Shown here one piece after another: positions 36,101 to 64,000 of a DNA stretch of 64,000 bases. The stretch covers positions 9,765,337 to 9,829,336 of the forward strand of contig CM082586.2 of the NCBI GenBank assembly GCA_040954595.2. Reading direction: 5' to 3'. Source of the DNA: Balanoglossus misakiensis. Its lineage: Eukaryota; Animalia; Hemichordata. Every line of letters starts with the position of its first letter. The stretch's first letter is position 1. A model generated the notes under the pieces. It ran no database searches, was not told the DNA's origin, and saw nothing but the letters and a program-made list of their open reading frames with translations. Both the position numbers and the translations under genes were made by a program.

Positions 36101-38222
36101 GTTTTTTTGCTAAATATTTATTTCAACCATCCAATGCTCCTAAATAATGTCGGTCATTTTACTCCCCATTCTTCGTACTGTGTTACTAATTTTCTGGGGT
36201 TTATCTGGAATGCACTTTTGCGTGTTTTTTAAGTTACGGGAGGGGTGATATGAACTACGGTCGTATGTTCACTTGCCTTCATCTTTAGACTCGTACGTCT
36301 TCATATCTCCCGGCATTTCAAAAAGTCTTTCTGCGTTGAACATTTCAACTTCCAAATTGGTTGAGAATACATGGGTTGCTCTCGCACAATCTTGAAATGG
36401 CCGGGAGAGACTCTTGAGCAATTATCTGTGTCTTCGCTAACACTTCCTATGGCGGTTTCTCGTACGGCTTTTACCATAAGGGGATCTGTTTGTCGATGTA
36501 CTTGCTGCAGGTTTATATGATGCAGGTGACGGAACAGGTGCGACATGAAACAGAATTCACCGCTGTCTTCATATCGTGGGTTAGCTACTGGCGGCAATTG
36601 ATAGAAGTCACCACATGCAACAATTTGTATGCCACCGTAGTAATCTCTGGACCCTCTGATTTTTCTGCAGATTTCATCAACTTGCTCGTGTATTTTCTTG
36701 CTTATCTGCGGAATTATGTACAGCATATTATTTATAATGCATAAATGATCATAAAACCGACACATGTGCAGGTGTATAAAAAATCTAAAATTTGCAGCTT
36801 GTGACTCTTTATAATAAAAACGTAATACAACTAGTGCAAGCTTCAATATTCATATTTACCATCGATATCTCATCAATTATGAGTATATCCGTGGGCAAAA
36901 TCATATTCTTCGCAGCATAAAAAGCGGGATCCGTGTTTAGCAAGTCGCATAATTCTTGCGTAAGATATATTCCATCCTTCATTTAAATAATTATGAAAAA
37001 GGATAAAGTTAACCACAAGATGTCGACATCACATCGAACATAACTTAAAACGAAGGAAAGCAGGGGACGGCATTATCTCAGTAATAAAGGCCGAAGGATA
37101 ACATTATCTCTATACTAAATGGCGAAGGACAGTAATATTTCTATATTTTAGGCCGAAGGACATCATTGTCTCATTCCCACGGAGGAAAATAGTTTTGTAG
37201 TACATTATTACCCCACTTGAACATCGGAATAGAATTGACGAATAAAATAAAAAACTGTGCATGGGGGAATTGTCTGTGTGGTCTGCGGATTTGTATACAG
37301 AGTCTATGGCGGAGACGAAGACTTCGAATCAATTCAAACTACTTTATTACTACTTCATTACTATAGCTACGTAAGCTGGTATGCTACAGAAAAGTGTGTC
37401 AACTCAAATGAGAGAAGTGGAAAGACCGGATGCATTCAGAGTCAATCCCCAGAAAGTGCTTCAAAGTGGTCTCAAAACAAGTACTAATGAAAAGGAATTA
37501 GCGACATGTTATATAGCTCATCTTGGCGGGAAAGTTTATAAAAGCTAGATTGTTATTGGCTAATAAATGAGTCATCCGGAGACTTTGTTTTAGTACACAT
37601 CCAGGTTATTTATGTGATCAGAGTTTATGATATCACTGTCAAGATCTTAACTAGAGTGTCATGTTTACACGAATCGAAACAGCTGTTCTAAACAAACACT
37701 GCCTTAGAGGAAATACACGTGAATTTGTTCGTCCAAAATTCGCCCTTCAGTAAAAAGATGCCGTTCTTCTCCATTTCGTATAGAGATAATGATGTCCTTC
37801 GCCCTAAAATATGGAGATATTACTGTCATTCGCCCTTAAGCATACAGATAATCGTGTCCTTCGCTTTCCTTTGTTTTAGTCTCACACTTACATCGGTTTT
37901 ATTGTCCAAAGAGGCCCCCGCATCCGTGGACATCATTGGCGATCATTGGGACTTTGTCATGTTCAGTTTTGATGAAATCTTTCGAGAGTACGCTTTGGTG
38001 AAACCAATCATGAAAACTTACCCGCAAGCCTGCCCAAGCATGTACAGTCATTGCCCGAGGGTACTGCAAAGTTGCTATCCCAGTGGAGGCTGTCACGTAG
38101 ATGCTTTTTTTTTTTCCAGAATAACGGTTGTGAATATTCTTGACGAGAGTAGTTTTTCCTGTACCGGCTTGGCCTGTTATCAGGATATTGTGTCCGAAAT
38201 TCAAGAGGTTTATAGCATCCAT
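33120..38222 (-). pseudogene. PIF1-family SF1B helicase fused to an acidic linker and C-terminal PHD finger, multi-exon, frameshifted
   Basis: ITGQAGTGKT, TASTGIA, TVHAWAG, LIIDEISM, GGIQIVACGDFYQLPPV, VHRQ, QIPLKLAFALTYHKAQ, FQPGQLSVGLGRV. Splice phases link it to the acidic exon and the PHD exon. Frameshifts near 36420, 35790 and 34395. Confidence 0.82.
37043..37880. mobile_element. Possible MITE with subrepeated inverted arms in PIF1 intron 1
   Basis: GAAGGAC/ATTATCTC subrepeats at 37050-37170 are inverted at ~37760-37880. Confidence 0.45.
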
Positions 38223-38911
38223 TGTGTACTTGAGTCCAGTGAATTTGTCAAAAATCTTTAAAAATACTATAGATGCTCAAAACTCGGAATCGGACACGGA
38301 GATCGGAAACGGATCAACTGCGTAATCAACGGATCATGTGATGATGTGATCGCGGCCAATCGGTAAAGGCTGCCGCACACGAGAGAAATAAGCTGAGCAA
38401 AAAGTCATTCGAGGAATTTTGCTCAGCAAGTTTCTCTCGTGTGCGGTGGACTTGAGTAATTTTCCTCGCGAGGAAAAAAAATATCAAACATGTTGAATAT
38501 CGTGATCCGCGGCGCAAAAGATCAGGAAAAATCGCCCGCACACGGAAGGAAAATTTATATTCTCACCCAAATTGAAAGTTATGTTTGTGAGCGAAAAAAC
38601 TTGAAGTGCATTTTCTGCAAAGTTCAAGTTCATGGGTCTACACCATAAATTACGGCCGTACAAACCCGTGAGATAATACTAGTAAAAGTTGTATGTTCGT
38701 ATTTTTTTTTTTTATTGCATTGGGAGGGGGGGGGGGGGCAACGCTACAACCATAATGATATTTGTAAATTTACAAAAGACAAATGGCGATGGAACATAAT
38801 ATGTAAACGCCGAGAAAAATCACTACCATAGAGAAATCACGATGTTTTATATGTGCTAATATAGTATGTACATCAACATAATTTAACACCTAATCTTTCT
38901 ACATATTGCAG

Positions 38912-40534
38912 GATACTGGCAAGATGACTAGCACTGAAACGAAAAGTGATAGTTTGTGTGAAGTGCTGCAAACCCTGCCAGAAAATGCAGTCAGCCTGAT
39001 TTCGTCGATGGTTAAAAATAGCACAGTGAAACCAACCAGCAGAAGATGGGATAGAGATGTAATAAAATTCGGCCTACACTTGTGGCTTAGAACGCCACAG
39101 GGCTATGAAGACATAAGGAAAAGCGGCCATCTTCTACTCCCCTCCCCTAGACGTCTGCAGATGTACAAGAACATAATCGATAAAAAATCTGGGTTTCATG
39201 ACGACATATTTCAGTGGATGAAAGACACGGCTGCAGAGAAAAACATCCTCCCATCTGGAGGCTCGGTTGGTATCATACTAGATGAGATGGCCATCCAGGA
39301 GGATCTACAGATTGACACCAGAGGTGGCATTAGTAAACTAGTTGGTGATGTAGACCTCGGAGACGAATGTACCAGTATGGATGTGATGAAGGCTGGATAC
39401 AAGAAAGGAGTACTTGCGAATCATACTCTACAATTTCAATTTCTGGGCTTTACCGGTTTCACCTTCCCATTTGCGCACTTTCCAACTCGCCAAGTTCAGG
39501 CCTATCATCTTTACGTTCTATTTTGGGAAGCTGTTGATAAATTAACAGACTGGGGCTTTACTGTTGATTTAGCAATGTTCGATGGTGCCGCAGCAAATCG
39601 TTCTTTCCTGAAAATGAATTTCAACGGCAACCCACTTGATGAAAAGATGCACGCCCCGAACCGCCTCTGCAGTCCTTCTGACACCGTTATAATGTGTATG
39701 GATCCAAACATGTAATTAAGAGACTAAGGAACAGTGTACTGAAGAGTGGTGAAGGCGATACCTATCCCAGGCATTTGCGATGGAATGGTGTTTATATTGA
39801 ATGGCAACACTGGCGCGATTCCTACAAGTGGGACACAGAAGTTAACCCGGAAATGTGTAGAATCAACCACAGGTTAACAACCGAACACATTTTCCCGGGA
39901 ATGTCCGCAAAAATGCGAAACCATCTCGCTGAGCAGGTCCTCGACAGTGAAATGCTCCACCTAATGGTTTGCTTCCAGCAAAGTCTTCCCGATCCAGATA
40001 TAGCCAGGCACGACTGAATGGCACAATCGAATTCTTACGCCACACCAGTCAAATCGCGTCATTTTTCACTGACGACAGGGAAGTAAAAGGGTGTGATGAT
40101 GGGAGGCTGTTGCAGTTACTCGTGGCAAGAGATTGGTTCCAATCGTGGGAGAAAGACGAGTTGGCAGACGAGACAACAACCAAAAGCAAGAGGGCCAGAA
40201 GACTGATGTCACATGAGACACGTGAAGACATTGTGTTTTGCCTGACCGCAGTCGTCGAGATTTGTGAGAAGAGGGCGGCTAAGTCGCTGACTACACTCCC
40301 GAGTCGACTCAACAGTGACGTCGTTGAGAACTTTTTATGCCAGCAGAGGACGAATCATAACGGCTCGAACACCAACCCTACGTACCTCCAATATACAAAG
40401 GGGTGAACAGTGTTTTGCTCAGTCAAACGAGCCGTACGTCGGCTAAGAAAGCCAATGCTGGTATAAGGGCGGCACAGCCTTTTAATTTCACTACACCCAA
40501 ACCTTTAAAGGTTCAGAAAATAAGTCAAAATTGA
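38912..40534 (+). pseudogene. P-element superfamily (THAP9-like core) transposase with three frameshifts
   Basis: LPSPRRLQ, IILDEMAIQEDL, FDGAAANR, DP/KHVIKRLRN, KMRNHLA, RLNSDVVENFLCQQR, NPTYLQY. Frame changes at ~39710, ~40010 and ~40400. Splice acceptor at 38911. Confidence 0.88.
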
Positions 40535-42265: not shown

Positions 42266-42364
42266 TAGTCTCGGTTACCCAGACCCCCCTGCTTCTTCCG
42301 TTGGGCTCTCCCCTCTTTGGAGTGCCCAACGGAAGAAGCAGGGGGGTCTGGGTAACAGAGACTA
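42266..42364. mobile_element. 99-bp palindromic MITE, TAG...CTA termini, 9-bp TSD (Academ-type)
   Basis: TATTCACAC at 42257-42265 and 42365-42373. Arms of ~45 bp are nearly perfect inverted repeats. Confidence 0.88.
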
Positions 42365-45590: not shown

Positions 45591-45830
45591 ATATAATGAA
45601 TTATATATAAATAAGTGATTTCTAAACCATGAAAAAATGCACTCGCGCCGTTTGTCAACTTATTGTTTAACGCAAACTCATTATTTAACGCAAACTCATT
45701 ATTTAAGGCCTGTTCACACAACCCCTTGCATTTGGATCATTATGTACACATATAGTCCCCACACGTGAACAAGAAATGCACATTACTTGCGGTCATTTCA
45801 TTTTTATTATACTCATATATACTTATATAT

Positions 45831-48800
45831 CTGTAATGGAAATGGAGAAAGTACCTTATATTTTCTGTAAAATAGACATTTAATTGGCAAGCCGTCCTGC
45901 ATCAATTATTAATTGTGTACATGCACTAAAGCGCCCTCACTGCTGGGTGTGTTGTATGGTCTTTAACCCTGTTTCAAATTAGAGTACTTTCTGCAATTTC
46001 AAGACAGATCTTACGTGCCATTGGAGAGCTCCATTGACTGGTCATTCATACTGTTTTCATTCATTCATTGCGGCATCAATATATTTTATCTATTCTAGCC
46101 AAAGAGCTTGGCACCTGTTGAAATGAACTCATCTGCTGTGGGCCAGTTTATTGGTGGCAGTTGAGCTGAGGAGAGCACCTTCCTTCCCGGCACGCCACCA
46201 AGTAAAGTTCCACGCCGCCCCCCACAGATGCCAGCATTCATTCATGCGAGTGAGTGTAATTGCAAATTTGCCTATTCTAGATCTGTAATGGAAATGGAGA
46301 AAGTACCTTATATTTTCTGTAAAATAGACATTTAATTGGCAAGCCGTCCTGCATCAATTATTAATTGTGTACATGCACTAAAGCGCCCTCACTGCTGGGT
46401 GTGTTGTATGGTCTTTAACCCTGTTTCAAATTAGAGTACTTTCTGCAATTTCAAGACAGATCTTACGTGCCATTGGAGAGCTCCATTGACTGGTCATTCA
46501 TACTGTTTTCATTCATTCATTGCGGCATCAATATATTTTATCTATTCTAGCCAAAGAGCTTGGCACCTGTTGAAATGAACTCATCTGCTGTGGGCCAGTT
46601 TATTGGTGGCAGTTGAGCTGAGGAGAGCACCTTCCTTCCCGGCACGCCACCAAGTAAAGTTCCACGCCGCCCACCACAGATGCCAGCATTCATTCATGCG
46701 AGTGAGTGTAATTGCAAATTTGCCTATTCTAGAATCTTACGTGCCATTGGAGAGCTCCATTGACTGGTCATTCATACTGTTTTCATTCATTCATTGCGGC
46801 ATCAATATATTTTATCTATTCTAGCCGAAGAGCTTGGCACCTGTTGAAATGAACTCATCTGCTGTGGGCCAGTTTATTGGTGGCAGTTGAGCTGAGGAGA
46901 GCACCTTTCTTCCCGGCACGCCACCAAGTAAAGTTCCACGCCGCCCACCACAGATGCCAGCATTCATTCATGCGAGTGAGTGTAATTGCAAATTTGCCTA
47001 TTCTTACGTGCCATTGGAGAGCTCCATTGACTGGTCATTCATACTGTTTTCATTCATTCATTGCGGCATCAATATATTTTATCTATTCTAGCCAAAGAGC
47101 TTGGCACCTGTTGAAATGAACTCATCTGCTGTGGGCCAGTTTATTGGTGGCAGTTGAGCTGAGGAGAGCACCTTCCTTCCCGGCACGCCACCAAGTAAAG
47201 TTCCACGCCGCCCACCACAGATGCCAGCATTCATTCATGCGAGTGAGTGTAATTGCAAATTTGCCTATTCTAGATCTGTAATGGAAATGGAGAAAGTACC
47301 TTATATTTTCTGTAAAATAGACATTTAATTGGCAAGCCGTCCTGCATCAATTATTAATTGTGTACATGCACTAAAGCGCCCTCACTGCTGGGTGTGTTGT
47401 ATGGTCTTTAACCCTGTTTCAAATTAGAGTACTTTCTGCAATTTCAAGACAGATCTTACGTGCCATTGGAGAGCTCCATTGACTGGTCATTCATACTGTT
47501 TTCATTCATTCATTGCGGCATCAATATATTTTATCTATTCTAGCCAAAGAGCTTGGCACCTGTTGAAATGAACTCATCTGCTGTGGGCCAGTTTATTGGT
47601 GGCAGTTGAGCTGAGGAGAGCACCTTCCTTCCCGGCACGCCACCAAGTAAAGTTCCACGCCGCCCACCACAGATGCCAGCATTCATTCATGCGAGTGAGT
47701 GTAATTGCAAATTTGCCTATTCTAGATCTGTAATGGAAATGGAGAAAGTACCTTATATTTTCTGTAAAATAGACATTTAATTGGCAAGCCGTCCTGCATC
47801 AATTATTAATTGTGTACATGCACTAAAGCGCCCTCACTGCTGGGTGTGTTGTATGGTCTTTAACCCTGTTTCAAATTAGAGTACTTTCTGCAATTTCAAG
47901 ACAGATCTTACGTGCCATTGGAGAGCTCCATTGACTGGTCATTCATACTGTTTTCATTCATTCATTGCGGCATCAATATATTTTATCTATTCTAGCCAAA
48001 GAGCTTGGCACCTGTTGAAATGAACTCATCTGCTGTGGGCCAGTTTATTGGTGGCAGTTGAGCTGAGGAGAGCACCTTCCTTCCCGGCACGCCACCAAGT
48101 AAAGTTCCACGCCGCCCACCACAGATGCCAGCATTCATTCATGCGAGTGAGTGTAATTGCAAATTTGCCTATTCTAGAATCTTACGTGCCATTGGAGAGC
48201 TCCATTCATACTGTTTTCATTCATTCATTGCGGCATCAATATATTTTATCTATTCTAGCCGAAGAGCTTGGCACCTGTTGAAATGAACTCATCTGCTGTG
48301 GGCCAGTTTATTGGTGGCAGTTGAGCTGAGGAGAGCACCTTCCTTCCCGGCACGCCACCAAGTAAAGTTCCACGCCGCCCACCACAGATGCCAGCATTCA
48401 TTCATGCGAGTGAGTGTAATTGCAAATTTGCCTATTCTAGAATCTTACGTGCCATTGGAGAGCTCCATTCATACTGTTTTCATTCATTCATTGCGGCATC
48501 AATATATTTTATCTATTCTAGCCGAAGAGCTTGGCACCTGTTGAAATGAACTCATCTGCTGTGGGCCAGTTTATTGGTGGCAGTTGAGCTGAGGAGAGCA
48601 CCTTCCTTCCCGGCACGCCACCAAGTAAAGTTCCACGCCGCCCACCACAGATGCCAGCATTCATTCATGCGAGTGAGTGTAATTGCAAATTTGCCTATTC
48701 TTACGTGCCATTGGAGAGCTCCATTGACTGGTCATTCATACTGTTTTCATTCATTCATTGCGGCATCAATATATTTTATCTATTCTAGCCAAAGAGCTTG

Positions 48801-51800
48801 GCACCTGTTGAAATGAACTCATCTGCTGTGGGCCAGTTTATTGGTGGCAGTTGAGCTGAGGAGAGCACCTTCCTTCCCGGCACGCCACCAAGTAAAGTTC
48901 CACGCCGCCCACCACAGATGCCAGCATTCATTCATGCGAGTGAGTGTAATTGCAAATTTGCCTATTCTAGATCTGTAATGGAAATGGAGAAAGTACCTTA
49001 TATTTTCTGTAAAATAGACATTTAATTGGCAAGCCGTCCTGCATCAATTATTAATTGTGTACATGCACTAAAGCGCCCTCACTGCTGGGTGTGTTGTATG
49101 GTCTTTAACCCTGTTTCAAATTAGAGTACTTTCTGCAATTTCAAGACAGATCTTACGTGCCATTGGAGAGCTCCATTGACTGGTCATTCATACTGTTTTC
49201 ATTCATTCATTGCGGCATCAATATATTTTATCTATTCTAGCCAAAGAGCTTGGCACCTGTTGAAATGAACTCATCTGCTGTGGGCCAGTTTATTGGTGGC
49301 AGTTGAGCTGAGGAGAGCACCTTCCTTCCCGGCACGCCACCAAGTAAAGTTCCACGCCACCCACCACAGATGCCAGCATTCATTCATGCGAGTGAGTGTA
49401 ATTGCAAATTTGCCTATTCTAGAATCTTACGTGCCATTGGAGAGCTCCATTGACTGGTCATTCATACTGTTTTCATTCATTCATTGCGGCATCAATATAT
49501 TTTATCTATTCTAGCCGAAGAGCTTGGCACCTGTTGAAATGAACTCATCTGCTGTGGGCCAGTTTATTGGTGGCAGTTGAGCTGAGGAGAGCACCTTCCT
49601 TCCCGGCACGCCACCAAGTAAAGTTCCACGCCGCCCACCACAGATGCCAGCATTCATTCATGCGAGTGAGTGTAATTGCAAATTTGCCTATTCTTACGTG
49701 CCATTGGAGAGCTCCATTGACTGGTCATTCATACTGTTTTCATTCATTCATTGCGGCATCAATATATTTTATCTATTCTAGCCAAAGAGCTTGGCACCTG
49801 TTGAAATGAACTCATCTGCTGTGGGCCAGTTTATTGGTGGCAGTTGAGCTGAGGAGAGCACCTTCCTTCCCGGCACGCCACCAAGTAAAGTTCCACGCCG
49901 CCCACCACAGATGCCAGCATTCATTCATGCGAGTGAGTGTAATTGCAAATTTGCCTATTCTAGATCTGTAATGGAAATGGAGAAAGTACCTTATATTTTC
50001 TGTAAAATAGACATTTAATTGGCAAGCCATCCTGCATCAATTATTAATTGTGTACATGCACTAAAGCGCCCTCACTGCTGGGTGTGTTGTATGGTCTTTA
50101 ACCCTGTTTCAAATTAGAGTACTTTCTGCAATTTCAAGACAGATCTTACGTGCCATTGGAGAGCTCCATTGACTGGTCATTCATACTGTTTTCATTCATT
50201 CATTGCGGCATCAATATATTTTATCTATTCTAACCAAAGAGCTTGGCACCTGTTGAAATGAACTCATCTGCTGTGGGCCAGTTTATTGGTGGCAGTTGAG
50301 CTGAGGAGAGCACCTTCCTTCCCGGCACGCCACCAAGTAAAGTTCCACGCCGCCCACCACAGATGCCAGCATTCATTCATGCGAGTGAGTGTAATTGCAA
50401 ATTTGCCTATTCTAGATCTGTAATGGAAATGGAGAAAGTACCTTATATTTTCTGTAAAATAGACATTTAATTGGCAAGCCGTCCTGCATCAATTATTAAT
50501 TGTGTACATGCACTAAAGCGCCCTCACTGCTGGGTGTGTTGTATGGTCTTTAACCCTGTTTCAAATTAGAGTACTTTCTGCAATTTCAAGACAGATCTTA
50601 CGTGCCATTGGAGAGCTCCATTGACTGGTCATTCATACTGTTTTCATTCATTCATTGCGGCATCAATATATTTTATCTATTCTAGCCAAAGAGCTTGGCA
50701 CCTGTTGAAATGAACTCATCTGCTGTGGGCCAGTTTATTGGTGGCAGTTGAGCTGAGGAGAGCACCTTCCTTCCCGGCACGCCACCAAGTAAAGTTCCAC
50801 GCCGCCCACCACAGATGCCAGCATTCATTCATGCGAGTGAGTGTAATTGCAAATTTGCCTATTCTAGATCTGTAATGGAAATGGAGAAAGTACCTTATAT
50901 TTTCTGTAAAATAGACATTTAATTGGCAAGCCGTCCTGCATCAATTATTAATTGTGTACATGCACTAAAGCGCCCTCACTGCTGGGTGTGTTGTATGGTC
51001 TTTAACCCTGTTTCAAATTAGAGTACTTTCTGCAATTTCAAGACAGATCTTACGTGCCATTGGAGAGCTCCATTGACTGGTCATTCATACTGTTTTCATT
51101 CATTCATTGCGGCATCAATATATTTTATCTATTCTAGCCAAAGAGCTTGGCACCTGTTGAAATGAACTCATCTGCTGTGGGCCAGTTTATTGGTGGCAGT
51201 TGAGCTGAGGAGAGCACCTTCCTTCCCGGCACGCCACCAAGTAAAGTTCCACGCCGCCCACCACAGATGCCAGCATTCATTCATGCGAGTGAGTGTAATT
51301 GCAAATTTGCCTATTCTAGATCTGTAATGGAAATGGAGAAAGTACCTTATATTTTCTGTAAAATAGACATTTAATTGGCAAGCCGTCCTGCATCAATTAT
51401 TAATTGTGTACATGCACTAAAGCGCCCTCACTGCTGGGTGTGTTGTATGGTCTTTAACCCTGTTTCAAATTAGAGTACTTTCTGCAATTTCAAGACAGAT
51501 CTTACGTGCCATTGGAGAGCTCCATTGACTGGTCATTCATACTGTTTTCATTCATTCATTGCGGCATCAATATATTTTATCTATTCTAGCCAAAGAGCTT
51601 GGCACCTGTTGAAATGAACTCATCCTTCCCGGCACGCCACCAAGTAAAGTTCCACGCCGCCCACCACAGATGCCAGCATTCATTCATGCGAGTGAGTGTA
51701 ATTGCAAATTTGCCTATTCTAGAATCTTACGTGCCATTGGAGAGCTCCATTGACTGGTCATTCATACTGTTTTCATTCATTCATTGCGGCATCAATATAT

Positions 51801-53376
51801 TTTATCTATTCTAGCCGAAGAGCTTGGCACCTGTTGAAATGAACTCATCTGCTGTGGGCCAGTTTATTGGTGGCAGTTGAGCTGAGGAGAGCACCTTCCT
51901 TCCCGGCACGCCACCAAGTAAAGTTCCACGCCGCCCACCACAGATGCCAGCATTCATTCATGCGAGTGAGTGTAATTGCAAATTTGCCTATTCTTACGTG
52001 CCATTGGAGAGCTCCATTGACTGGTCATTCATACTGTTTTCATTCATTCATTGCGGCATCAATATATTTTATCTATTCTAGCCAAAGAGCTTGGCACCTG
52101 TTGAAATGAACTCATCTGCTGTGGGCCAGTTTATTGGTGGCAGTTGAGCTGAGGAGAGCACCTTCCTTCCCGGCACGCCACCAAGTAAAGTTCCACGCCG
52201 CCCACCACAGATGCCAGCATTCATTCATGCGAGTGAGTGTAATTGCAAATTTGCCTATTCTAGATCTGTAATGGAAATGGAGAAAGTACCTTATATTTTC
52301 TGTAAAATAGACATTTAATTGGCAAGCCGTCCTGCATCAATTATTAATTGTGTACATGCACTAAAGCGCCCTCACTGCTGGGTGTGTTGTATGGTCTTTA
52401 ACCCTGTTTCAAATTAGAGTACTTTCTGCAATTTCAAGACAGATCTTACGTGCCATTGGAGAGCTCCATTGACTGGTCATTCATACTGTTTTCATTCATT
52501 CATTGCGGCATCAATATATTTTATCTATTCTAGCCAAAGAGCTTGGCACCTGTTGAAATGAACTCATCTGCTGTGGGCCAGTTTATTGGTGGCAGTTGAG
52601 CTGAGGAGAGCACCTTCCTTCCCGGCACGCCACCAAGTAAAGTTCCACGCCGCCCACCACAGATGCCAGCATTCATTCATGCGAGTGAGTGTAATTGCAA
52701 ATTTGCCTATTCTAGATCTGTAATGGAAATGGAGAAAGTACCTTATATTTTCTGTAAAATAGACATTTAATTGGCAAGCCGTCCTGCATCAATTATTAAT
52801 TGTGTACATGCACTAAAGCGCCCTCACTGCTGGGTGTGTTGTATGGTCTTTAACCCTGTTTCAAATTAGAGTACTTTCTGCAATTTCAAGACAGATCTTA
52901 CGTGCCATTGGAGAGCTCCATTGACTGGTCATTCATACTGTTTTCATTCATTCATTGCAGCATCAATATATTTTATCTATTCTAGCCAAAGAGCTTGGCA
53001 CCTGTTGAAATGAACTCATCTGCTGTGGGCCAGTTTATTGGTGGCAGTTGAGCTGAGGAGAGCACCTTCCTTCCCGGCACGCCACCAAGTAAAGTTCCAC
53101 GCCGCCCACCACAGATGCCAGCATTCATTCATGCGAGTGAGTGTAATTGCAAATTTGCCTATTCTAGAATTCTTACGTGCCATTGGAGAGCTCCATTGCC
53201 TGGTCAATCATACTGTTTTCATTCATTCATTGTGGCATCAATATATTTTATCTATTCTAGCCGAAGAGCTTGGCACCTGTTGAAATGAACTCATCTGCTG
53301 TGGGCCAGTTTATTGGTGGCAGTTGAGCAGAGGAGAGCACCTTCTTTCCCGGCACGCCACCAAGTAAAGTTCCACG
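45831..53376 (+). repeat. Left terminal array: 177-bp TIR-bearing module B + ~275-bp module A (452-bp period), with B absent at 10 junctions
   Basis: B starts at 45831, 46283, 47276, 47728, 48973, 49966, 50418, 50870, 51322, 52266 and 52718. Copies are near-identical. Confidence 0.95.
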
Positions 53377-53763
53377 TGCATTCCTGGCCCTGGTTTTATT
53401 TATGTTTACAGACAATATTGCATTTTTGTACAAGTATTTTAATCAACTATAAATTTTGAATGTGTCATTTACCTGAACCGGTCATGTTGACCAGAATGAT
53501 ACATTTCTGCCTTCACTCACCCTATAAATATGTGATTGAGACATAGGTCATTTGCATAAGCTAACATACCAGAAAGTAAGCATATCTGTTGTTTTCCCTG
53601 TGTCACTGCCATCAAAGTAAAAATTAGACGTTGTGTAGAGCAAACTCCAATTTTTTGTTCTCAATAAACATGGATGAATTACATAGAATGTGTTTGTTGT
53701 TTACAGTCTTTAAATGACACATTAGATTATGCACTTTACAAAACGTTTCTGAGAAACAAGTGA

Positions 53764-54264
53764 CTAACTAGTTTCTTTCCACTGTGGCCAACGTGGTTCA
53801 CTGTTTGTGTCAGAATCTCTCTGTTTTGCAAGGATTTTGAAATCATAGTGGTGACATGCATAGTGAAAATCAGCTACTTTCAAATGTCTGTCATGTTCAT
53901 GCTGTAATTGAATTTTCAAAGCTGGGCTGGCGTGTTTTTTCTTATTTACATAAGTATCACACTTTATACATGTATCTTCATGGGGTTTTTTGAGTCCCGT
54001 ATTTAGGTCCTCTCTCACAATTTTACGAAATATCGTATAACTGACAGTTGTTCTTCCCAGAAGAGATTGGTTGGTTATGAACTCTCGGTGTAACTGCGAT
54101 ATACTGTGGTCCGGCGCCAGGTACGGTTTAAATCGAGGATTCCTGCAGTAGTGAGATTCTACAATTATGTGCCTGCGTACGTGTTCAGTGATATCAGTCA
54201 GCAAATTTGGATTGAGTTTCCGACGATGCCCTTTGTGTCGGCCCCTTGCATCTGGCATCAGACC
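53764..54264 (-). pseudogene. 5'-truncated duplicate of the Sola N-half gene (902-bp tandem duplication 53363-54264 / 54265-55166)
   Basis: ORF 53764-54258 is nearly identical to the C-terminal 164 aa of 54666-55622. Confidence 0.9.
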
Positions 54265-54665
54265 AGTAAAGTTCCATGTGCATTCCTGGCCCTGGTTTTA
54301 TTTATGTTTACAGACAATATTGCATTTTTGTACAAGTATTTTAATCAACTATAAATTTTGAATGTGTCATTTACCTGAACCGGTCATGTTGACCAGAATG
54401 ATACATTTCTGCCTTCACTCACCCTATAAATATGTGATTGAGACATAGGTCATTTGCATAAGCTAACATACCAGAAAGTAAGCATATCTGATGTTTTCCC
54501 TGTGTCACTGCCATCAAAGTAAAAATTAGACGTTGTGTAGAGCAAACTCCAATTTTTTGTTCTCAATAAACATGGATGAATTACATAGAATGTGTTTGTT
54601 GTTTACAGTCTTTAAATGACACATTAGATTATGCACTTTACAAAACGTTTCTGAGAAACAAGTGA

Positions 54666-55622
54666 CTAACTAGTTTCTTTCCACTGTGGCCAACGTGGTT
54701 CACTGTTTGTGTCAGAATCTCTCTGTTTTGCAAGGATTTTGAAATCATAGTGGTGACATGCATAGTGAAAATCAGCTACTTTCAAATGTCCGTCATGTTC
54801 ATGCTGTAATTGAATTTTCAAAGCTGGGCTGGCGTGTTTTTTCTTATTTACATAAGTATCACACTTTATACATGTATCTTCATGGGGTTTTCTGAGTCCC
54901 GTATTTAGGTCCTCTCTCACAATTTTACGAAATATCGTATAACTGACAGTTGTTCTTCCCAGAAGAGATTGGTTGGTTATGAACTCTCGGTGTAACTGCG
55001 ATATACTGTGGTCCGGCGCCAGGTACGGTTTAAATCGAGGATTCCTGCAGTAGTGAGATTCTACAATTCTGTGCCTGCGTACGTGTTCAGTGATATCAGT
55101 CAGCAAATTTGGATTGAGTTTCCGACGATGCCCTTTGTGTCGGCCCCTTGCATCTGGCATCAGACCAGTTGAACAGTGCATCATTTTGCTTAGAACGGTT
55201 CTAGTCCGCCTCTCACTAATGCCAAATAATTTCAGGAATGCATTTTTGCAGACAGTAACCGTTTCACCGCCTTCATTCACCAGGTGATAACGAACCGATT
55301 TCTTGTGTGACTTCATCTGTATATCCATCAGTTTGTAGAGCATCAAGTTCTGTTCATTATACACGCGACCATCAAAATATTTTCTCGTGGTGCCTAAAAC
55401 ATGCGTACTCCCAAGCTTCCGCAGACAATTCCCTTGAACGCAGGCGCATTCCAAGGAAAGACTGTCAATATCTGGAAAAGGGCGATTTTTCCTTGGTTTT
55501 TGTCTCGGACACGTCTTTTTAGAATTCCTACGTGGCTTGTTGGCTCGAGCTGACAGTTCGGTTCTGCGTTGCTGCCACACAGGAATGGGTTCCCACGCAT
55601 AAGCAACTCCCCGGCAGGCCAT
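54666..55622 (-). CDS. Sola1-type transposase N-terminal half (Cys/His-rich DNA-binding region), 318 aa
   Basis: ACCATGG start and an uninterrupted frame. Motifs CACVQGNC, VCKNAFLKLFGIS..R, DARGRH, ESHYCR, YL, SY..FRKI, KPHEDTCIKCD, H..HL, as I recognise them from Sola1 N-termini. Confidence 0.8.
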   Translation of the reverse strand: MACRGVAYAWEPIPVWQQRRTELSARANKPRRNSKKTCPRQKPRKNRPFPDIDSLSLECACVQGNCLRKLGSTHVLGTTRKYFDGRVYNEQNLMLYKLMDIQMKSHKKSVRYHLVNEGGETVTVCKNAFLKLFGISERRTRTVLSKMMHCSTGLMPDARGRHKGHRRKLNPNLLTDITEHVRRHRIVESHYCRNPRFKPYLAPDHSISQLHREFITNQSLLGRTTVSYTIFRKIVREDLNTGLRKPHEDTCIKCDTYVNKKKHASPALKIQLQHEHDGHLKVADFHYACHHYDFKILAKQRDSDTNSEPRWPQWKETS

Positions 55623-55785
55623 GGTCACAGCTGAAGTATTTGTTCAAGTACTGACTGACTAAACGCGGCATGGAACAAACGAACGAACGACTTCACGTTC
55701 GGAAAAAAAATCGTTGCGAGCTGTTGGGTGCCTCTATAGTTGTCGGCAACCGTTCTTTTTTATTGCTAAACAATGCTGTCAGAGC

Positions 55786-56799
55786 ATGGAAGGTGTGGTG
55801 GAAAACGAACAGAGGTTTTGTACGACCAACGATTGGATGGTGCTACATATGGACTTCCACAAGTCATTGCCGGTTCCTAAACTCAGCTCTGAAGACTTTT
55901 ACTTTAAATCGAAATTGCAAATGAAGCTCCTTGGAATTTACAACGGGACAACGGAAAAGATGCATTGTTATGTATGGACAGAGCTCGATAGCAGAAAGTC
56001 TCCCGATGAAGTTATTACCTGTCTAAATCACTTTTTTTATAACTCGGGTGTGACCAGCAGACATGCAGTTATTTACAGCGACAACTGCCGTGCCGAATTC
56101 AAGTGTGGGAAGTTAATGTTTTACTATGACTATCTGTTACGAAAGGGCGTGTTTCGACGAATTGACTATAAAACTCTTGTGGCTGGACACACGTACTCCA
56201 CCTGTGACCGAGTTTTTGCGTCCATTGAAAGGCATGCAAGTCGTTTCCAGAGTATAGAGACACCTCACGATTGGACATCTGTGATTCGAGGATCTTCTCT
56301 GAATGGGAACATTGGAGTTACGGAGATGACTCACAGAGACTTTTTCAATTATTCTGATTTCCTGAAAAATGAGTACGTTGTGCGTTATGCAGATACAAAC
56401 AATGTAACTTTTTACTACCAAGCCATGCACTATTTTAATTTTGGAGAAGGAGAAAGGCTTGATACCGACGGCAACCTCAGAACATTTAGTCATGCAGATA
56501 AAGTTTGGGTGAGAACATCTCTAGATCCAAGCGAGACCCCGATTGTAGTCGACTTTAGAAAGAAGAAGCAGAACCGGCGTTTACAAGATTGTACGCTGAA
56601 CAAACTTTATCAGGAACGTCGACCACTGGCGAGCAAAGTTTGGCGGGATCTTCAGAGTTTAGCCAAAAATTACCTGTCTCCGGAGGCAATAGAATTTTAT
56701 AGGAATCTACCGCTTCAGGAGAGTAGTGGCACCTCTGCAGACCCGTACGCCTTTCATGATGATGACGACGACGATGATGATGATATGGGCGGTGGTTGA
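55786..56799 (+). CDS. Sola1-type transposase catalytic (RNase H-fold DDD) half, 337 aa
   Basis: AGCATGG start. LHMDFHKSLPVP..FYFKSKL, YVWTE...SPDEVITCL, YSDNC, GHTYSTCDRVFASIE: all three Asp present. Acidic tail. Confidence 0.85.
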   Translation: MEGVVENEQRFCTTNDWMVLHMDFHKSLPVPKLSSEDFYFKSKLQMKLLGIYNGTTEKMHCYVWTELDSRKSPDEVITCLNHFFYNSGVTSRHAVIYSDNCRAEFKCGKLMFYYDYLLRKGVFRRIDYKTLVAGHTYSTCDRVFASIERHASRFQSIETPHDWTSVIRGSSLNGNIGVTEMTHRDFFNYSDFLKNEYVVRYADTNNVTFYYQAMHYFNFGEGERLDTDGNLRTFSHADKVWVRTSLDPSETPIVVDFRKKKQNRRLQDCTLNKLYQERRPLASKVWRDLQSLAKNYLSPEAIEFYRNLPLQESSGTSADPYAFHDDDDDDDDDMGGG

Positions 56800-56960
56800 A
56801 CAAACTGTCCTTTTCATGACGACAGTGATTTTGGATATTTGATGTGCGTGCACAGTTTATATGTAATATTTTCACACGAACGAGTTTTGACTGAATTTGA
56901 TTAAAGAATGTACTCGATAATTAACAAATGTGCTGAATCGTGGTTATTATGTTGTTAATT

Positions 56961-56993
56961 TTTGTTTGTTTGTTTGTTTGTTTGTTTGTTTGT
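56961..56993. repeat. (TTTG)n microsatellite
   Basis: Direct reading. Confidence 0.9.
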
Positions 56994-57189
56994 AAACAAT
57001 TTCCGTTCATTCAACTGGCTACAAAGTTGGATTTTTGTACTGGGAAGCGATAAACTCGCACATCAAAACCGGGGAGACTCGATCATTTTTCCCTGCAGGT
57101 AGCCTGAAAAGCACCCGGGCAGAGATTACGTCATATATGGTCCACTTTAATACGAAATTATGCAAATGTGACATATCACGGAAACGGCG

Positions 57190-57199
57190 TATATAAAAG
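57190..57199 (+). promoter_or_regulatory. Candidate TATA box of the wHTH-SET gene
   Basis: TATATAAAAG ~90 bp upstream of AACATGG (ATG 57291). Confidence 0.5.
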
Positions 57200-57290
57200 C
57201 GACCCTGGGCTATTGTTCGGAATGCGTCATCGACGAGAGAGTGACTGATAATTCTTCTACCTCGAGTCAACCATTCTGTATATACTGAAC

Positions 57291-58616
57291 ATGGCTAGCT
57301 GGCGCAGGAAGAGACAAGGCAATGTGCGGTCTGTAATCAACGAACGGCACCGCTCAGTTCAGTGTCCCTTTCTTCAAAAGTGGATCGGTGAGCAATTGGT
57401 ATTTTCAGGTCGTTCAGAGGATGAAGTCCAGTCCAGTACTGTATTTGAGAGCTACAAATGTTGGGTTGAAAACTATTCGTCGGCGGACAATCAAGTAATG
57501 ATTATGGTTACTAAAGCTCGATTTTTCAAGGTGAGAATGATCGCATTTTTCTTCCCCCCCCCCTCCCTCCCCCAAGGGACTCGTTTTCTGTCTCTTTTAA
57601 ACCTGTAACTTAACGAAAAGGAAGTTTTTCACATATCTCTTTGTTGACACTATAGCAATTTGGAGCGCGGATGCTTCAAGAGAATAGCGTTACCAAATCA
57701 AAGTCGGCCGGGGTTAATATTTATAGAGGTGTTCGTCTGAAAGCTGGTTCGCGAAGAATCTCAACGGGGAAACCTGAGCACAGTGTACTTCAGACCAGGG
57801 CAAGGGCATTTCTTGATGACGCCAGCGTGACCGTTCCGATCGAGGTAAGAATGGTGTTTTGTTTGGACTAGGACAATAGAACGTTGCAATGAGTGTGTCA
57901 ATGGGTGTCCAAGTGCAAACGTGGTCGGCTTCTGTCCACAAATGCCATTAATTTTAGGCAGGATTTATAAAATTGTCAATGAAGAATACAAAAATGAAAA
58001 ACAATAGTTAATAGCAAACGGGTAGGATTGCAAGGGCTTGTAAAACGGTACACACTGTACCAGGAAGTTTGCAACACTAATGAAGAATGTATATGATATA
58101 TTTAGGTGAGAACTGTTCGCGATCGCCGGGACGCAGGACGGTGCGCGTTTTCGACGAGGGATCTTCAAGCCTGGAACGTCGTCTGCGAATACCGGGGCAC
58201 GGTTATTAGCGTTGAAGAAGCTAGTCGGCGTGATGAACTTTACAGGGCAGAGGGGAAACGACCACGCATGTTTCATCTCTACATTGGAAAGAGACACGTT
58301 GTGTGAGTGTATCACTTAGTCGAATATATGGTCATATATTGCAAAGCATCTGTCGAAATAGAAAACGTAATATTGTCTATATTTTCCTCATTAACGCAGC
58401 ATTGACGGATACGATGTCCCAGCCGGTGAAGAAAATTTAGCGGGCCTAATAAATCACAGTCAGCAGAACGCCAACTTGGTACCGGTTCGGATCGGAGAGC
58501 GCCTGGTTTTCTTTGCAACCAGGAATCTTTGTCAGGGAGTAGAGCTTTTGTATGATTACGGTGACGGGGGTGAAGAGGATTTCTTCAGTGGTTCTCAAAC
58601 TTTTCCTGAAAATTAA
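57291..58616 (+). CDS. Winged-helix (RFX/D5-C-terminal-like) + PR-Set7/SETD8-like SET-domain protein, 4 exons, 280 aa
   Basis: Exons 57291-57530, 57656-57844, 58106-58302 and 58400-58616, all GT-AG, total 843 nt in frame. SET motifs GRCAFSTR, VCEYRG, RDELY, IDG, GLINHS, FFATRNL..G.ELLYDYGD. Confidence 0.85.
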
Positions 58617-59518
58617 GGCATTAACACATCAACGCTTCGGGATGTCGTAACGGCGGCAAGGCGGGGGGGGGGGGCGTGAAAATGTTTGTATCAGGAACAA
58701 AATTCCCCTGCAAATCACCTTGATCCGGGTGGGTGGACTATTCGCGACAAATGTTGAAATCATACAAAGCATTTTACTTAATTAACCCATTTTTTTTTCA
58801 TTTATTTGTTTACAGTTTACAACGTCATAGAGAAGTTGAACTAGAGACTGGATCAGCGTGGGTGACACCATAGTACACCAATGTTTTCTTCCGTTTGAAT
58901 CAATTGTAATTTAAAACTGAGATTGCCTAACGCTTTCCCAGATTTTTTTAACCACTGAGAAACTGTGGGTTTTTTTCTGGGTTTTGGTGCGAGGTGATCT
59001 CAGTCAGTGGTGTTAATTTAATTAATCATTTTATTTTCCTATTTACGTCGACTGAAATGTATTTTGATAGGTGATAGTCATACCATAAAAAAATCTTACG
59101 GCGCGACTGCCAAAATGTACATTTATTTGTCCGTTCCAAGTTATTTTGTGTATGTGTGATGGGTGCCGGTGACTGTGCAGGGTTGATTTCCCTAGAGCGA
59201 CTGTTATATTCGTTTTCCAACGATGATGAATTTACATGTTATTTGCTTGGCATTTTGACGCAGAGACACTTCTGAAAACACAAACCTATTTATTATGCCA
59301 CGGGTGTAAATTGATCACATTAAAAGAGGCTTTAGACGTTTGCCGCGAGCTCCTGGTGGGCAGAATCTTGTCAGCCCAAATTTGACTATAAGTACATAGC
59401 CAATGATATGACGCTCTCCCACATCCTTCGCCGCGCCTTTTCGCTGATTTACAGCATCTTGCGTAAACACTGTCATTTGATCTTGCTTGGCAGAAGTCAA
59501 CTTGCTCTATACTACATT

Positions 59519-59884
59519 ATGGCGGCCAAGCTCAACTGCATATCAGATAATGCCAAGGAGCGTTTGAGAGGCATCCTCGCCAGAAGGAGTCGCGTTTCCG
59601 GTGACTGTGTGCTCTGGACGGGTGCAGCTTGTCGAAACGGCTATGGCTCTATTACGTTCAAAGATGAGAACACTCTAACCGCCTATGTCCATCACATTGC
59701 ACTCCTAATTAACGGAGTGCAATTGGTGGGCAGGCGGTTAGAGTGTTCTCATCTTTGCAACGAAAAGCTATGCATCCGCCCAGAGCACATTGTCCAGGAA
59801 ACGCGACTCCTAAACATTTCACGAAAGACGTGCTTTAAATCCCCAAAAGGGGAGTGTCACCACGATCCCAGGTGCCTAAGGTGA
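59519..59884 (+). CDS. Small His-Me finger (His-Cys box, I-PpoI-like) endonuclease, 121 aa
   Basis: CVLWTGA..RNGYG, YVHH, SHLCNEKLCIRPEHIVQETRLLNISRKTC, CHHDPRC. The His of SHLC and the downstream Asn are retained. A splice donor at 59881 could alter the last residues. Confidence 0.88.
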   Translation: MAAKLNCISDNAKERLRGILARRSRVSGDCVLWTGAACRNGYGSITFKDENTLTAYVHHIALLINGVQLVGRRLECSHLCNEKLCIRPEHIVQETRLLNISRKTCFKSPKGECHHDPRCLR

Positions 59885-60870
59885 GTAATCCTCTTCTCAT
59901 TTGATATGTATTGTGTGACCCTGCAGTTGAAACGCTTTCATCAATAATTTGCGGCGCGTGGGTAATCTCGGTGTTATTGACAATGCAGCCGGCCCAAACA
60001 TTTTTAAATTAACACTGTTTCTGACTGTATTAACGAAATGTCCAATTTGCAAGTAGCCTATAGACAACCCTTTTGAATGAGTTTTGTCTCGTTGAGATTT
60101 TATACATAAGGAACAATCTAGATTTATTTTAGAAGACACTGTTCTTTTAAAACAGCTAGCATAATACAGCTAAATTTCGGAATTTCCGGACAATTTTCGG
60201 AATTCCTTTTAAATTTGAGAAATTTTTCATCAGATATAAGTGTTACTATTTATTGGGCATGTTTTTATCATTGTTTACTTTTTAAGGTCATTCTCATCCC
60301 CCCCCCCCCCAAAAAAAAAAGCCGCTTTAGGCTTCATGTTCAGTAAAAAATCTGGAAAGTTCAGCTGAATTTTACACTGATCACACATTTTTGGGAAGGT
60401 CTGGCGCAAAATAAAGGATGACAAATGTAAATCTAATGTCACATTTGTAAACCTCTAAGTATTGTACACTCATTCTATTAAGTATATGCAAATAGTACGG
60501 ATAATTTTTTCGGAATGTGGAATTCCGAAATTAGTTCGGAACGTGTTAGCAGTGAAGAGATCACCACTGAGGGTTGGAAGGCCTTGCCAGAAATTAACGC
60601 GTAAAGTACGCCCTCACAGGCCATGTAAACAAGGTCAAATAAGGCCGTCTGGCAAACGAATGATTAATTCAACGCGCCATTTGAGCCGAGCTGAGTTGGT
60701 CTGAGTTGCGTATCACACAGACTTAGGCTGAATGTCAGTGGAGTAACCAGTCCGTTTTAGATTTACCAATGATGTGAATTTAATTTCTTCACCCAGAAAA
60801 ACAGAACACAACTTGTCTGCAACATGATGCTGGAGGTGACACATGACAGAGAAGTGGATCCGCGTTGTCA

Positions 60871-61200
60871 ACACAGATGCCAGCATTCAAAAGGGGAGTG
60901 CCACCTGCTAAAATCAACTCATCTGCTGTTGGCCCATTTTACCTGTGGCAACTGTTCAGAGGAGACAACGTTTATTCCGTGCAAGCCAACACGCAATGTT
61001 GGGGTCTACCTGTCAACACAGATGCAAGCATTCATGTGAGTGAGTATCAGGACTGACCTTGTATTTGCTGAATAATTCATAATGCCTATTTTAGAATTCT
61101 TAGAGGCATTTGGAGTTCATTGCCTGGTCAACCAAACTACACCCCTTAACAGCTGAAACAAAATGCGTATTGTGTTCATTCATTCATTGCATCAATATAT
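60871..61200 (+). repeat. Highly diverged module-A relic inside the element
   Basis: CACAGATGCCAGCATTCA, AACTCATCTGCTG, GCCTATTTTAGAATTCTTA and CATTCATTCATTGCATCAATATAT match module A. Confidence 0.75.
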
Positions 61201-61515
61201 ATAGGCAACATGAGTATCAAGTAGCACTATTTGTTTACGATTGTATTCATGAAAACTTCCCACTAACAATTCCACAGTTAATATTGAACACATTTATCCA
61301 ACAAGGTCAAAAGAAAAAGGGAATCTTCTGGTTCCAAAATACGCCACAAATGTGGGTCAACATACAGTGAAATATTATGGTGCTCAAATATGCAACATAT
61401 CAAATCTGTCTCATCAAAGTCATGCTTTAAAAAAGAATTGAAAAGGTATTATTTATCCATTTGACTGCTGTATTTTCAGAAGGAAAACAAACTGAATTTG
61501 GTTTTTCATGTACAA

Positions 61516-63117
61516 ATATTTTCTGTAAAATAGACATTTAATTGGCAAGCCGTCCTGCATCAATTATTAATTGTGTACATGCACTAAAGCGCCCTCACTG
61601 CTGGGTGTGTTGTATGGTCTTTAACCCTGTTTCAAATTAGAGTACTTTCTGCAATTTCAAGACAGATCTTACGTGCCATTGGAGAGCTCCATTGACTGGT
61701 CATTCATACTGTTTTCATTCATTCATTGCGGCATCAATATATTTTATCTATTCTAGCCAAAGAGCTTGGCACCTGTTGAAATGAACTCATCTGCTGTGGG
61801 CCAGTTTATTGGTGGCAGTTGAGCTGAGGAGAGCACCTTCCTTCCCGGCACGCCACCAAGTAAAGTTCCACGCCGCCCACCACAGATGCCAGCATTCATT
61901 CATGCGAGTGAGTGTAATTGCAAATTTGCCTATTCTAGATTCTTACGTGCCATTGGAGAGCTCCATTGACTGGTCATTCATACTGTTTTCATTCATTCAT
62001 TGCGGCATCAATATATTTTATCTATTCTAGCCAAAGAGCTTGGCACCTGTTGAAATGAACTCATCTGCTGTGGGCCAGTTTATTGGTGGCAGTTGAGCTG
62101 AGGAGAGCACCTTCCTTCCCGGCACGCCACCAAGTAAAGTTCCACGCCGCCCACCACAGATGCCAGCATTCATTCATGCGAGTGAGTGTAATTGCAAATT
62201 TGCCTATTCTAGATCTGTAATGGAAATGGAGAAAGTACCTTATATTTTCTGTAAAATAGACATTTAATTGGCAAGCCGTCCTGCATCAATTCTTAATTGT
62301 GTACATGCACTAAAGCGCCCTCACTGCTGGGTGTGTTGTATGGTCTTTAACCCTGTTTCAAATTAGAGTACTTTCTGCAATTTCAAGACAGATCTTACGT
62401 GCCATTGGAGAGCTCCATTGACTGGTCATTCATACTGTTTTCATTCATTCATTGCGGCATCAATATATTTTATCTATTCTAGCCAAAGAGCTTGGCACCT
62501 GTTGAAATGAACTCATCTGCTGTGGGCCAGTTTATTGGTGGCAGTTGAGCTGAGGAGAGCACCTTCCTTCCCGGCACGCCACCAAGTAAAGTTCCACGCC
62601 GCCCACCACAGATGCCAGCATTCATTCATGCGAGTGAGTGTAATTGCAAATTTGCCTATTCTAGATTCTTACGTGCCATTGGAGAGCTCCATTGACTGGT
62701 CATTCATACTGTTTTCATTCATTCATTGCGGCATCAATATATTTTATCTATTCTAGCCAAAGAGCTTGGCACCTGTTGAAATGAACTCATCTGCTGTGGG
62801 CCAGTTTATTGGTGGCAGTTGAGCTGAGGAGAGCACCTTCCTTCCCGGCACGCCACCAAGTAAAGTTCCACGCCGCCCACCACAGATGCCAGCATTCATT
62901 CATGCGAGTGAGTGTAATTGCAAATTTGCCTATTCTAGATCTGTAATGGAAATGGAGAAAGTACCTTATATTTTCTGTAAAATAGACATTTAATTGGCAA
63001 GCCGTCCTGCATCAATTATTAATTGTGTACATGCACTAAAGCGCCCTCACTGCTGGGTGTGTTGTATGGTCTTTAACCCTGTTTCAAATTAGAGTACTTT
63101 CTGCAATTTCAAGACAG
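61516..63117 (+). repeat. Right terminal array: partial B, A, A, B, A, A, B (same orientation as the left array)
   Basis: Complete B at ~62214 and at 62941-63117. The innermost B lacks its left TIR. B-less junctions at ~61940 and ~62665. Confidence 0.93.
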
Positions 63118-63286
63118 ATATACTTATATACTTATATACTTATATATTAGATGAAACACCGAAAAAGGTATCAACTAGTTAGTGATTTTAGCCCGTGATT
63201 GCAATGTTTGATTGAAACGCGAAAAGCTGATCGATAGCTCTACATTGTGGTCTCCGAGGTCAAAGGTTGGCCGGTCATGGCGATAC

Positions 63287-63475
63287 CATTATTAAAATAG
63301 GGGCCAGTCATCAAAACGTAAGTGAGCCAAAAAACTACAGGTCAGATAAATTGTTTTCTCGTAAATTCAACATTAGAATCAAATTTGGCGTTGGAAACAA
63401 ACGGCGGGTCGCCAGTTCCTGGTCTGGAGGCTGGTAGAGTCACGTCTTGAAGACTGGCCCCTATTTTAATAATGG
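63287..63475. mobile_element. Short inverted-repeat element (possible MITE)
   Basis: CCATTATTAAAATAGGGGCCAGTC is inverted as GACTGGCCCCTATTTTAATAATGG ~140 bp downstream. Confidence 0.5.
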
Positions 63476-64000
63476 CATTCCAGCATATGTCTCTATACCC
63501 GAATCGACAATTAACATTACAGGACAGCTGACGGATATAAAATTTATACTTTATAGAGAGGAACAAATTCAGACTTAAACATACTTTATATGTTTGTATT
63601 TTACAGCTGGGATACTTTTCTGTGCGTAAAGATAAACACTGGTCGCAATAAATGACGTCGAGTGGTTTCAGTTGAATTCCATTTGTGCGAGGCAGGTGTG
63701 GACAGCATGCAAAGCGGCGTTGTTATTGGCGCGGTTCCTTTAAAGTGTTTTACTCTGTCATTCAGCGAGTTTTCTGACCGCGTATGAAGTTCGGTGTCCA
63801 GTGGCGTTGACGGCGTGTCATTCAGAAATCTATGTTCAGTGTATTCAGTTCAAGACTGAAGTCAGCAAATGTTACAATTATTAGTTTGTTTGTGGAAGTT
63901 GGAAATGATGCAACAAGGATTCTTGAATGTATTCGAGATTTTAAAAAGAAGATGTAGTGCTCTAAAGGGCCATTGTGACGACAATATTTTGCCCAACAGC

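Follow-up and report, generated by a model that had tools for sequence, protein, structure and literature searches.

Here we analyse a 64,000-nucleotide stretch of DNA from the hemichordate Balanoglossus misakiensis (GenBank assembly GCA_040954595.2, contig CM082586.2; hereafter the window), in which two arrays of short modules, termed A and B, enclose an inner region with a transposase encoded in two halves, a SET-domain gene and a His-Me nuclease gene. We consider it probable that this unit is a young, several-copy composite DNA transposon with A modules as its ends and a two-protein transposase predicted to reassemble. Its parts, including terminal inverted repeats (TIRs) and a candidate target-site duplication (TSD), are as follows.

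45827-45830: left ATAT, candidate 4-bp TSD, in a (ATATACTT)n microsatellite
45831-63117: whole element, 17,287 bp, from base 1 of one A to base 177 of another
45831-46007: module A, 177 bp, at the outer left end, with imperfect 24-bp TIRs (CTGT...ACAG)
46008-46282: module B, 275 bp, non-coding, between A copies, starting ATCT and ending AGAT
45831-53168: left array, 11 A and 20 B in the order ABABBBABABBBBABBBABABABABBBABAB
53169-53376: partial B (B bases 2-207, 97% identity) opening the 8.3-kb inner region
53363-54267 and 54265-55169, (-): 905-bp tandem duplication (99.4%) covering the 3' half of the N-half gene and the sequence downstream of it
54666-55622, (-): N-terminal half (N half) of a DUF7869-family (Sola-type) transposase, 318 amino acids (aa), with its own ATG and stop
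55623-55785: 163-bp spacer between the divergent start codons, a putative two-way promoter
55786-56799, (+): C-terminal catalytic half (C half), 337 aa, DUF7869 (E 1e-14), with D23, D99 and D141
57291-58616, (+): SET gene, predicted 280 aa, exons 57291-57530, 57656-57844, 58106-58302 and 58400-58616
59519-59884, (+): His-Me (His-Cys box, I-PpoI-like) nuclease, 121 aa, PF05551 (E 1e-12)
59585-59811, (+): 227-nt fold-back in the nuclease coding sequence, 99 predicted pairs
60885-61200: older B-like relic, about 70% identity, spanning a B-B type junction without A
61516-63117: right array, namely a truncated A (bases 28-177), B, B, A, B, B, A
63118-63121: right ATAT, candidate TSD

Module mapping bears out a first-pass annotation that placed the same 177-bp module at both ends of 45831-63117 with ATAT on either side. 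That annotation was right on the bounds and missed the 905-bp duplication, the B-like relic, the truncated A and the hairpin in the nuclease gene. The TIRs of A pair at 19 of 24 bases, a value that none of 20000 shuffles attained, and 11 of the 13 full-length A copies are identical, the other two having one change each. B folds no better than shuffles (z 0.65), and Rfam gave no matches in 52700-64000. Together A and B make a period of 452 bp, but A+B has no TIRs of its own. At the left, the opening partial B joins the last B of the array directly, without an A between them; at the right inner junction (61516) stands the 5'-truncated A, and the right array further holds two full A and four B. 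We rejected the idea that B arose from the long inner region simply by deletion, as only its 5' 207 bases match there at 97% and the remainder at about 70%. Further diverged B-like units in sequencing runs suggest older subfamilies of the element.

All junctions between unlike modules are exact (B-A, 12/12; A-B, 13/13). Twelve B-B junctions lack an A. Five of them have lost a single left base, two a single right base, one has two changed inner bases and four have lost eight bases at a 3-bp microhomology, which makes four types. An A-B-B-B block with the same variants occurs four times in the left array, once with a fourth B, which points to block duplication in place; because of such duplications, the 12 B-B junctions may represent only four events. 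Cleavage with hairpins on the flanks, as in hAT elements, would fit the junction with two changed bases, but the transposase model shows no insertion domain. For KolobokP, described by Kojima and Bao 2022 (PMC9587614), INT-INT junctions with micro-deletions were interpreted as traces of terminal-repeat excision. Because the micro-deletions here are of the same kind, we infer that the B-B junctions are KolobokP-style scars from which an A was excised.

The split transposase

The N half corresponds to the region just upstream of the catalytic core in single-chain DUF7869 proteins, and both halves lie in one chain in 73 of 158 proteins examined (150 matches and 8 cluster members). The residues D23, D99 and D141 align with columns that hold D in all 36 single-chain relatives, and the triad is kept in all three split C halves; the third catalytic D sits 42 residues past the second, making a compact core. 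A structure model of the C half from 57 sequences (pLDDT, the predicted local distance difference test, 89.6) best matches integrases, Metnase and Mos1 (Z 10.6-9.2, root-mean-square deviation 2.8-4.2, 126-155 aligned), and the C half is predicted to carry an integrase/mariner-like RNase H core. A first model, built on 4 sequences (pLDDT 39), was discarded.

Stand-alone halves also occur in relatives, at 30-52% identity. A HMMER search without a length limit returned 2597 relatives of the N half; a word-index protein search for it gave no matches within its length limits. The best six of the 150 listed N-half matches stand alone at 306-347 aa, have their ends at one and the same helix and stop 2-14 residues beyond the match, five of them with a tryptophan and proline tail like that of the window N half and P0005 just before it. 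An Oculina gene model (XP_078355980.1, NCBI) also ends at this helix. P0010 is short and thus uninformative on this end point, and P0050 says nothing about it because it is cut by its contig end. For the C half, the search covered 185-590 aa and matched two of 418 candidates, both stand-alone and with the same start, one of them Saccoglossus LOC100368598 (XP_002739486, an NCBI gene model).

The trees separate the same proteins. With 47 rows for the N half, the window sequence, P0004-P0010, P0014 and P0050 (10 rows) lie across a long branch (SH-aLRT, the Shimodaira-Hasegawa-like approximate likelihood ratio test, 99); with 39 rows for the C half, the three split C halves do the same (SH-aLRT 100). 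Both groups were set against 36 single-chain rows, chosen by a length of 550-900 aa and a C-profile E <1e-18, other matches being left out. P0013 was rejected as a split relative, as it groups among single-chain proteins. At several positions, the three split C halves all depart from a residue that the single-chain rows keep without, or almost without, exception. Since stand-alone N and C halves with matching ends are found in relatives and form separate tree groups, the two-subunit transposase is very probably inherited and not a broken copy. P0001 and P0004 both lie on 2400-bp contigs, possibly a single one, which is a hint, though no more, of the same paired layout.

Complex prediction for the two halves gave 0.68 against 0.00 for the best of three controls, with a contact agreement of at least 63% and a partner pLDDT of at least 60. 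Among microbial pairs, 51 of 78 solved and 2 of 108 mismatched ones attained this mark; among eukaryotic pairs, 39 of 65 without a like complex and 2 of 126 unrelated ones did. In the predicted interface, the last helix of the N half lies on the catalytic sheet of the C half; the contact residues D293, F294, L297 and A298 belong to a motif that is hydrophobic in the split relatives and charged in most single-chain ones. The modelling thus predicts that the halves reassemble into one DDD enzyme.

A scan of genome contigs for relatives gave only one locus, L001, on a contig of a bacterial metagenome-assembled genome (MAG). Its N half (3917-4963; P0050, truncated at the contig end) is closest to the Oculina protein and is likely host contamination; a 78-bp palindrome (3265-3342) lies upstream of it. 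The MAG, which is incomplete and in which the control was also silent, yielded no C half and no PF05551 match. No related loci were found in metagenome contigs, viral contigs or phage records.

The SET gene and the nuclease gene with its hairpin

The first-pass annotation described four intact open reading frames (ORFs) between the arrays. Our analysis confirms four frames; the SET gene needs three GT-AG introns between its four predicted exons. Against PDB sequences, exon 4 matches KMT5A (E 8e-4) and exon 3 matches KMT2C (E 2e-4) and KMT5A (E 0.03). Besides these weak matches, the protein shares with SETD8/KMT5A and KMT2C the absence of a post-SET cysteine cluster, and it differs from them by an altered first glycine motif and by an N-terminal part of 143 aa that matches no family. 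Of the six exon variants listed from the sequencing runs, three leave the protein unchanged and none creates a stop codon. From its sequence, the product is likely a histone methyltransferase.

The nuclease aligns with I-PpoI (E 0.002), with counterparts of H98, H110 and N119 present, and its motif pattern resembles that of the KolobokP nuclease in a by-eye comparison with Data S4 of PMC9587614. A word-index protein search found no relatives of the nuclease within its length limits.

Most of the nuclease domain is spanned by the hairpin, which has a predicted energy of -158.9 kcal/mol (z -18.4, 0 of 200 shuffles). Synonymous resamplings of it (n=150) reach -69 +/- 6 kcal/mol, and -89 at best; the next-best fold among 69 windows of the inner region is at -73. 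In the outer stem, VLW codons pair in frame with PEH codons, and in the inner stem the SHLC motif is mirrored by a variable segment, both arms keeping motifs of the nuclease family. A simple inverted duplication was rejected as its origin, since the arms hold different conserved nuclease motifs in several registers. Nine opposed mismatches include five G-U on the coding strand and one A-C, and the common variant A59661G would create one more G-U. This lean hints, without being significant, that the hairpin acts as RNA. A regulatory RNA role is slightly favoured in our judgment, the alternatives being a DNA cruciform or a functionless conversion from arm to arm.

Insertion site, copies and surroundings

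Sequencing contigs from two runs, X1 and X2, bear on the insertion site. One X1 contig leaves the window sequence at 45814 and, after 10 differing bases, matches it again from 63147. Three X2 contigs reach 63147 from left-flank-like sequence, and the element is absent from all four. The two flanks are therefore parts of a single repeated host element, which is uninterrupted at other places. The first-pass annotation had called for an empty site; here the flanks are joined without the element, with 10 bases that differ from the microsatellite of the window. The ATAT itself is weak evidence for a TSD because it lies inside the (ATATACTT)n microsatellite. It fits the AWWT targets reported to be preferred by Sola1 (PMC3845634), at one site in that microsatellite.

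The depth of X1 is 693-808 over the N half, the C half, the SET gene, the nuclease gene and 61228-61516, and 1564 on the 905-bp duplicated part, versus 122 on a nearby low-copy contig. This suggests roughly six near-identical cassettes moving together, contig depth being a rough guide and no copy number, and X1 possibly being the source sample. No inverted pair was found at the ends of 53170-61520 among the best 25 of 132 inverted pairs by length. This, the continuity of the flanks, the shared X1 depth of the inner genes and the KolobokP-like B-B junctions support the claim that the two apparent satellites and the genes between them are one composite unit. The exact length of the arrays is provisional because the arrays are nearly 100% identical and no contig spans them.

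In X1, the depth of A and B is in the tens of thousands; in X3, A and B are at 52 and 96 versus about 1-2 for the inner region. X3 and X4 are from a sample labelled as another organism and contain, at low depth, near-identical copies of 53450-55115 and of the arrays, probably as admixed DNA. GATC-type joints suggest that X2 is a proximity-ligation library, and those that lead to GATC sites within the arrays were discarded as ligation products. A 4-bp insertion variant at 55728, between the transposase halves, is present in X1 and X2. In the right flank, 63283-63478 holds 37-bp inverted repeats (92%) around about 196 bp and has high depth in X1 and X2.

Elsewhere in the window, 1-11766 is a long diverged satellite of 192-196 bp units in higher-order blocks. 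A 3' fragment of a non-LTR (long terminal repeat) retroelement ORF lies at 19994-21298, flanked on both sides by a 189-bp direct repeat (19678/21056). A 2.5-kb tandem duplication (29782-35072, 97%) contains a PHD-finger ORF (33123-34613, (-)), one copy being frameshifted, and 36304-40403 holds a piece of a PIF1-like helicase (-) and pieces of a P/THAP-type transposase (PF21787, (+)) with long inverted repeats at 37046-37878; the helicase and THAP pieces and the PHD gene are possibly one larger element. Several non-coding elements, of fold-back type or resembling miniature inverted-repeat transposable elements, occur at 11900-12044, 13914-14256, 18351-18504, 23201-23676, 28556-29524 and 42266-42364.

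Proposed mechanism, rival explanations and known systems

In the mechanism that we propose, a heterodimeric transposase would bind the ends of A, and any left and right A end could pair. Depending on the choice of pair, excision would release one A, leaving a B-B scar, an A-B-A mini-element, or the outer ends together with the gene cassette, and the excised unit would insert into an AT-rich 4-bp site. A shorter form may have inserted first, and unequal exchange would then have lengthened the arrays where they stood, as the recurrence of A-B-B-B blocks indicates. Cutting by the His-Me nuclease would favour such exchange, as was proposed for KolobokP (PMC9587614). The hairpin in the nuclease mRNA would damp a DNA-cutting enzyme through double-stranded RNA processing, editing or blocked translation, and the SET protein would mark the element's own chromatin. 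That the A ends are the substrate of the split transposase is likely, and we hold this with good confidence; for array growth driven by the nuclease, the chances fall a little short of even; and a move of the whole 17.3 kb in one step is doubtful.

Several observations weigh against the composite transposon as read here or against parts of it. Concerning the transposase, both trees are quick searches without a completed approximately unbiased test. The complex score supports binding but does not show it, because split-gene halves tend to pass by likeness to an intact family. L001 has no C half, SET gene or nuclease gene within 3.9 kb upstream of its N half, and because of this a back-to-back layout is not established lineage-wide. 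Concerning the hairpin, the G-U bias is weak, and neither the word-index protein search nor the metagenome contigs provided a homologue of the nuclease gene on which to check its conservation. At the insertion site, the 10-bp stretch in the element-free contigs differs from the microsatellite here, so that the exact empty allele was not seen, and the one site examined lies within a microsatellite. As to copies, X1 and X2 come from one sample, possibly the source of the assembly, and the inner region has an uneven depth in X2 (1255-6676). Relative to the inner region, A and B are several-fold more abundant in the runs than in the window, so that many arrays may be without genes; contig depth is a rough guide here as well. 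Finally, an X1 contig (depth 775) exits 61516 into a sequence absent from the window instead of A, which means that the copies are not all of the same build, and an X2 contig appears to enter A about 8 bases earlier at this junction.

One rival explanation, which we regard as improbable, is that only A, or A-B-A, jumps. A solo A would have landed here, the cassette and A-B units would have been added by recombination with A-INT or A-B circles, and the 17-kb unit would never have moved whole. For KolobokP, a circle route of this kind has been put forward, under which the TSD stays as it was (PMC9587614). The excess of A and B over the inner region in X1 and X3 agrees with it, as do the different B-B junction types of the left and right arrays; the cassette, however, starts B-on-B and ends in a truncated A, whereas clean recombination would give a whole A on both sides.

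A second rival, to which we assign still less weight, takes A as an unrelated miniature element within a B satellite, co-amplified with it and moved by another transposase, and the cassette as a separate element whose ends are lost or unseen. The X1 contig that leaves 61516 does so at full inner depth, other diverged B-like units occur in the runs, and the link of the transposase to the A ends is putative, all of which would suit such an arrangement. Against it, the cassette opens with a 97%-identical B and contains an older junction of B-like sequence towards the opposite end, both limits of the unit coincide exactly with A ends within a host repeat, and the gene set parallels that of KolobokP.

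The weakest rival, that the split is decay by an inversion breaking one gene, the arrays are an assembly artefact, or both, is very improbable: although the arrays are nearly 100% identical and spanned by no contig, their blocks bear their own variants and A, B, their junctions and the inner region are present in sequencing contigs, and the decay explanation is largely refuted by the many relatives whose halves stand alone and have matching ends, including the NCBI models XP_078355980.1 and XP_002739486.

Taken as a composite transposon, the element is most like KolobokP. The two share (PMC9587614) terminal direct repeats, each with TIRs of its own (here module A), on both sides of an inner region, multimers and INT-INT junctions with micro-deletions (here 12 B-B junctions of four types), and a small I-PpoI-like His-Me nuclease. 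By contrast, the Kolobok DDD/E transposase has a C/DxxH signature and zinc fingers between its catalytic residues, whereas the transposase here is a DUF7869 DDD enzyme split into two divergent genes. The terminal repeat is 177 bp here and about 450 or 660 bp there, the termini are CT...AG instead of RR...YY, and the nuclease lies on the same strand as the catalytic gene. The element also adds a SET gene, long arrays and a hairpin in its nuclease gene; the KolobokP text consulted mentions no such hairpin. The start motif of A had no matches in the KolobokP supplements searched, in which line breaks could hide one, and the TIR pattern of A had none in metagenome contigs. The first-pass annotation had proposed a KolobokP-like composite design on an unrelated transposase; the repeats, junctions and nuclease agree with this design, and the transposase, termini and repeat length differ. 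The element thus works like KolobokP but is not KolobokP.

The Sola1 label given to the transposase in that annotation is putative and rests on a likeness of motifs. The DDD core is homologous to single-chain DUF7869 transposases of 550-900 aa, and the TIRs are a further point of likeness to Sola and Sola1; the ATAT, at its one site in a microsatellite, would fit AWWT. Sola1 has a single 630-aa ORF (PMC3845634), and a canonical Sola transposase unites its DNA-binding and catalytic parts in one ORF; the transposase here, by contrast, is two genes on long separate branches, and the element differs further in its composite ends and its accessory SET and nuclease genes. It may best be classed as a derived Sola-type lineage rather than a canonical Sola1. 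Bacterial composite transposons and IS26 translocatable units, as described in PMC9587614, likewise carry cargo between directly repeated, independently mobile TIR units; the end units here, unlike theirs, are non-coding and the transposase lies in the cargo. A literature search, with subscription journals, Repbase Reports, Dfam and bioRxiv supplements outside its scope, returned no split Sola transposase and no Sola element with SET or His-Me genes, and the literature searched does not name DUF7869. Because Repbase and Dfam were outside this scope, a catalogued but unpublished family, for example from Saccoglossus, may exist.

In its fullest form, our interpretation is that these animal cut-and-paste transposons, with their two-subunit DDD transposase, make up a lineage not yet described. 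It would have evolved the KolobokP design independently, have turned its 177-bp end module into satellite-scale arrays through exchange driven by the homing nuclease, mark these arrays with its own histone methyltransferase, and hold the nuclease in check because the sequence encoding the catalytic domain has been recoded to form a 227-nt double-stranded RNA. That all of these should hold together is unlikely. If they do, the composite design with a homing nuclease would have come about on another, unrelated eukaryotic transposase or been transferred to one, and KolobokP would be no one-off. The arrays would then trace a path from transposon ends to satellite DNA, and a natural two-part DDD transposase would offer a usable split point for conditional transposase tools. 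With roughly 99 pairs between the two catalytic halves of the nuclease, the same bases would be constrained both as protein code and as RNA, which is rare.

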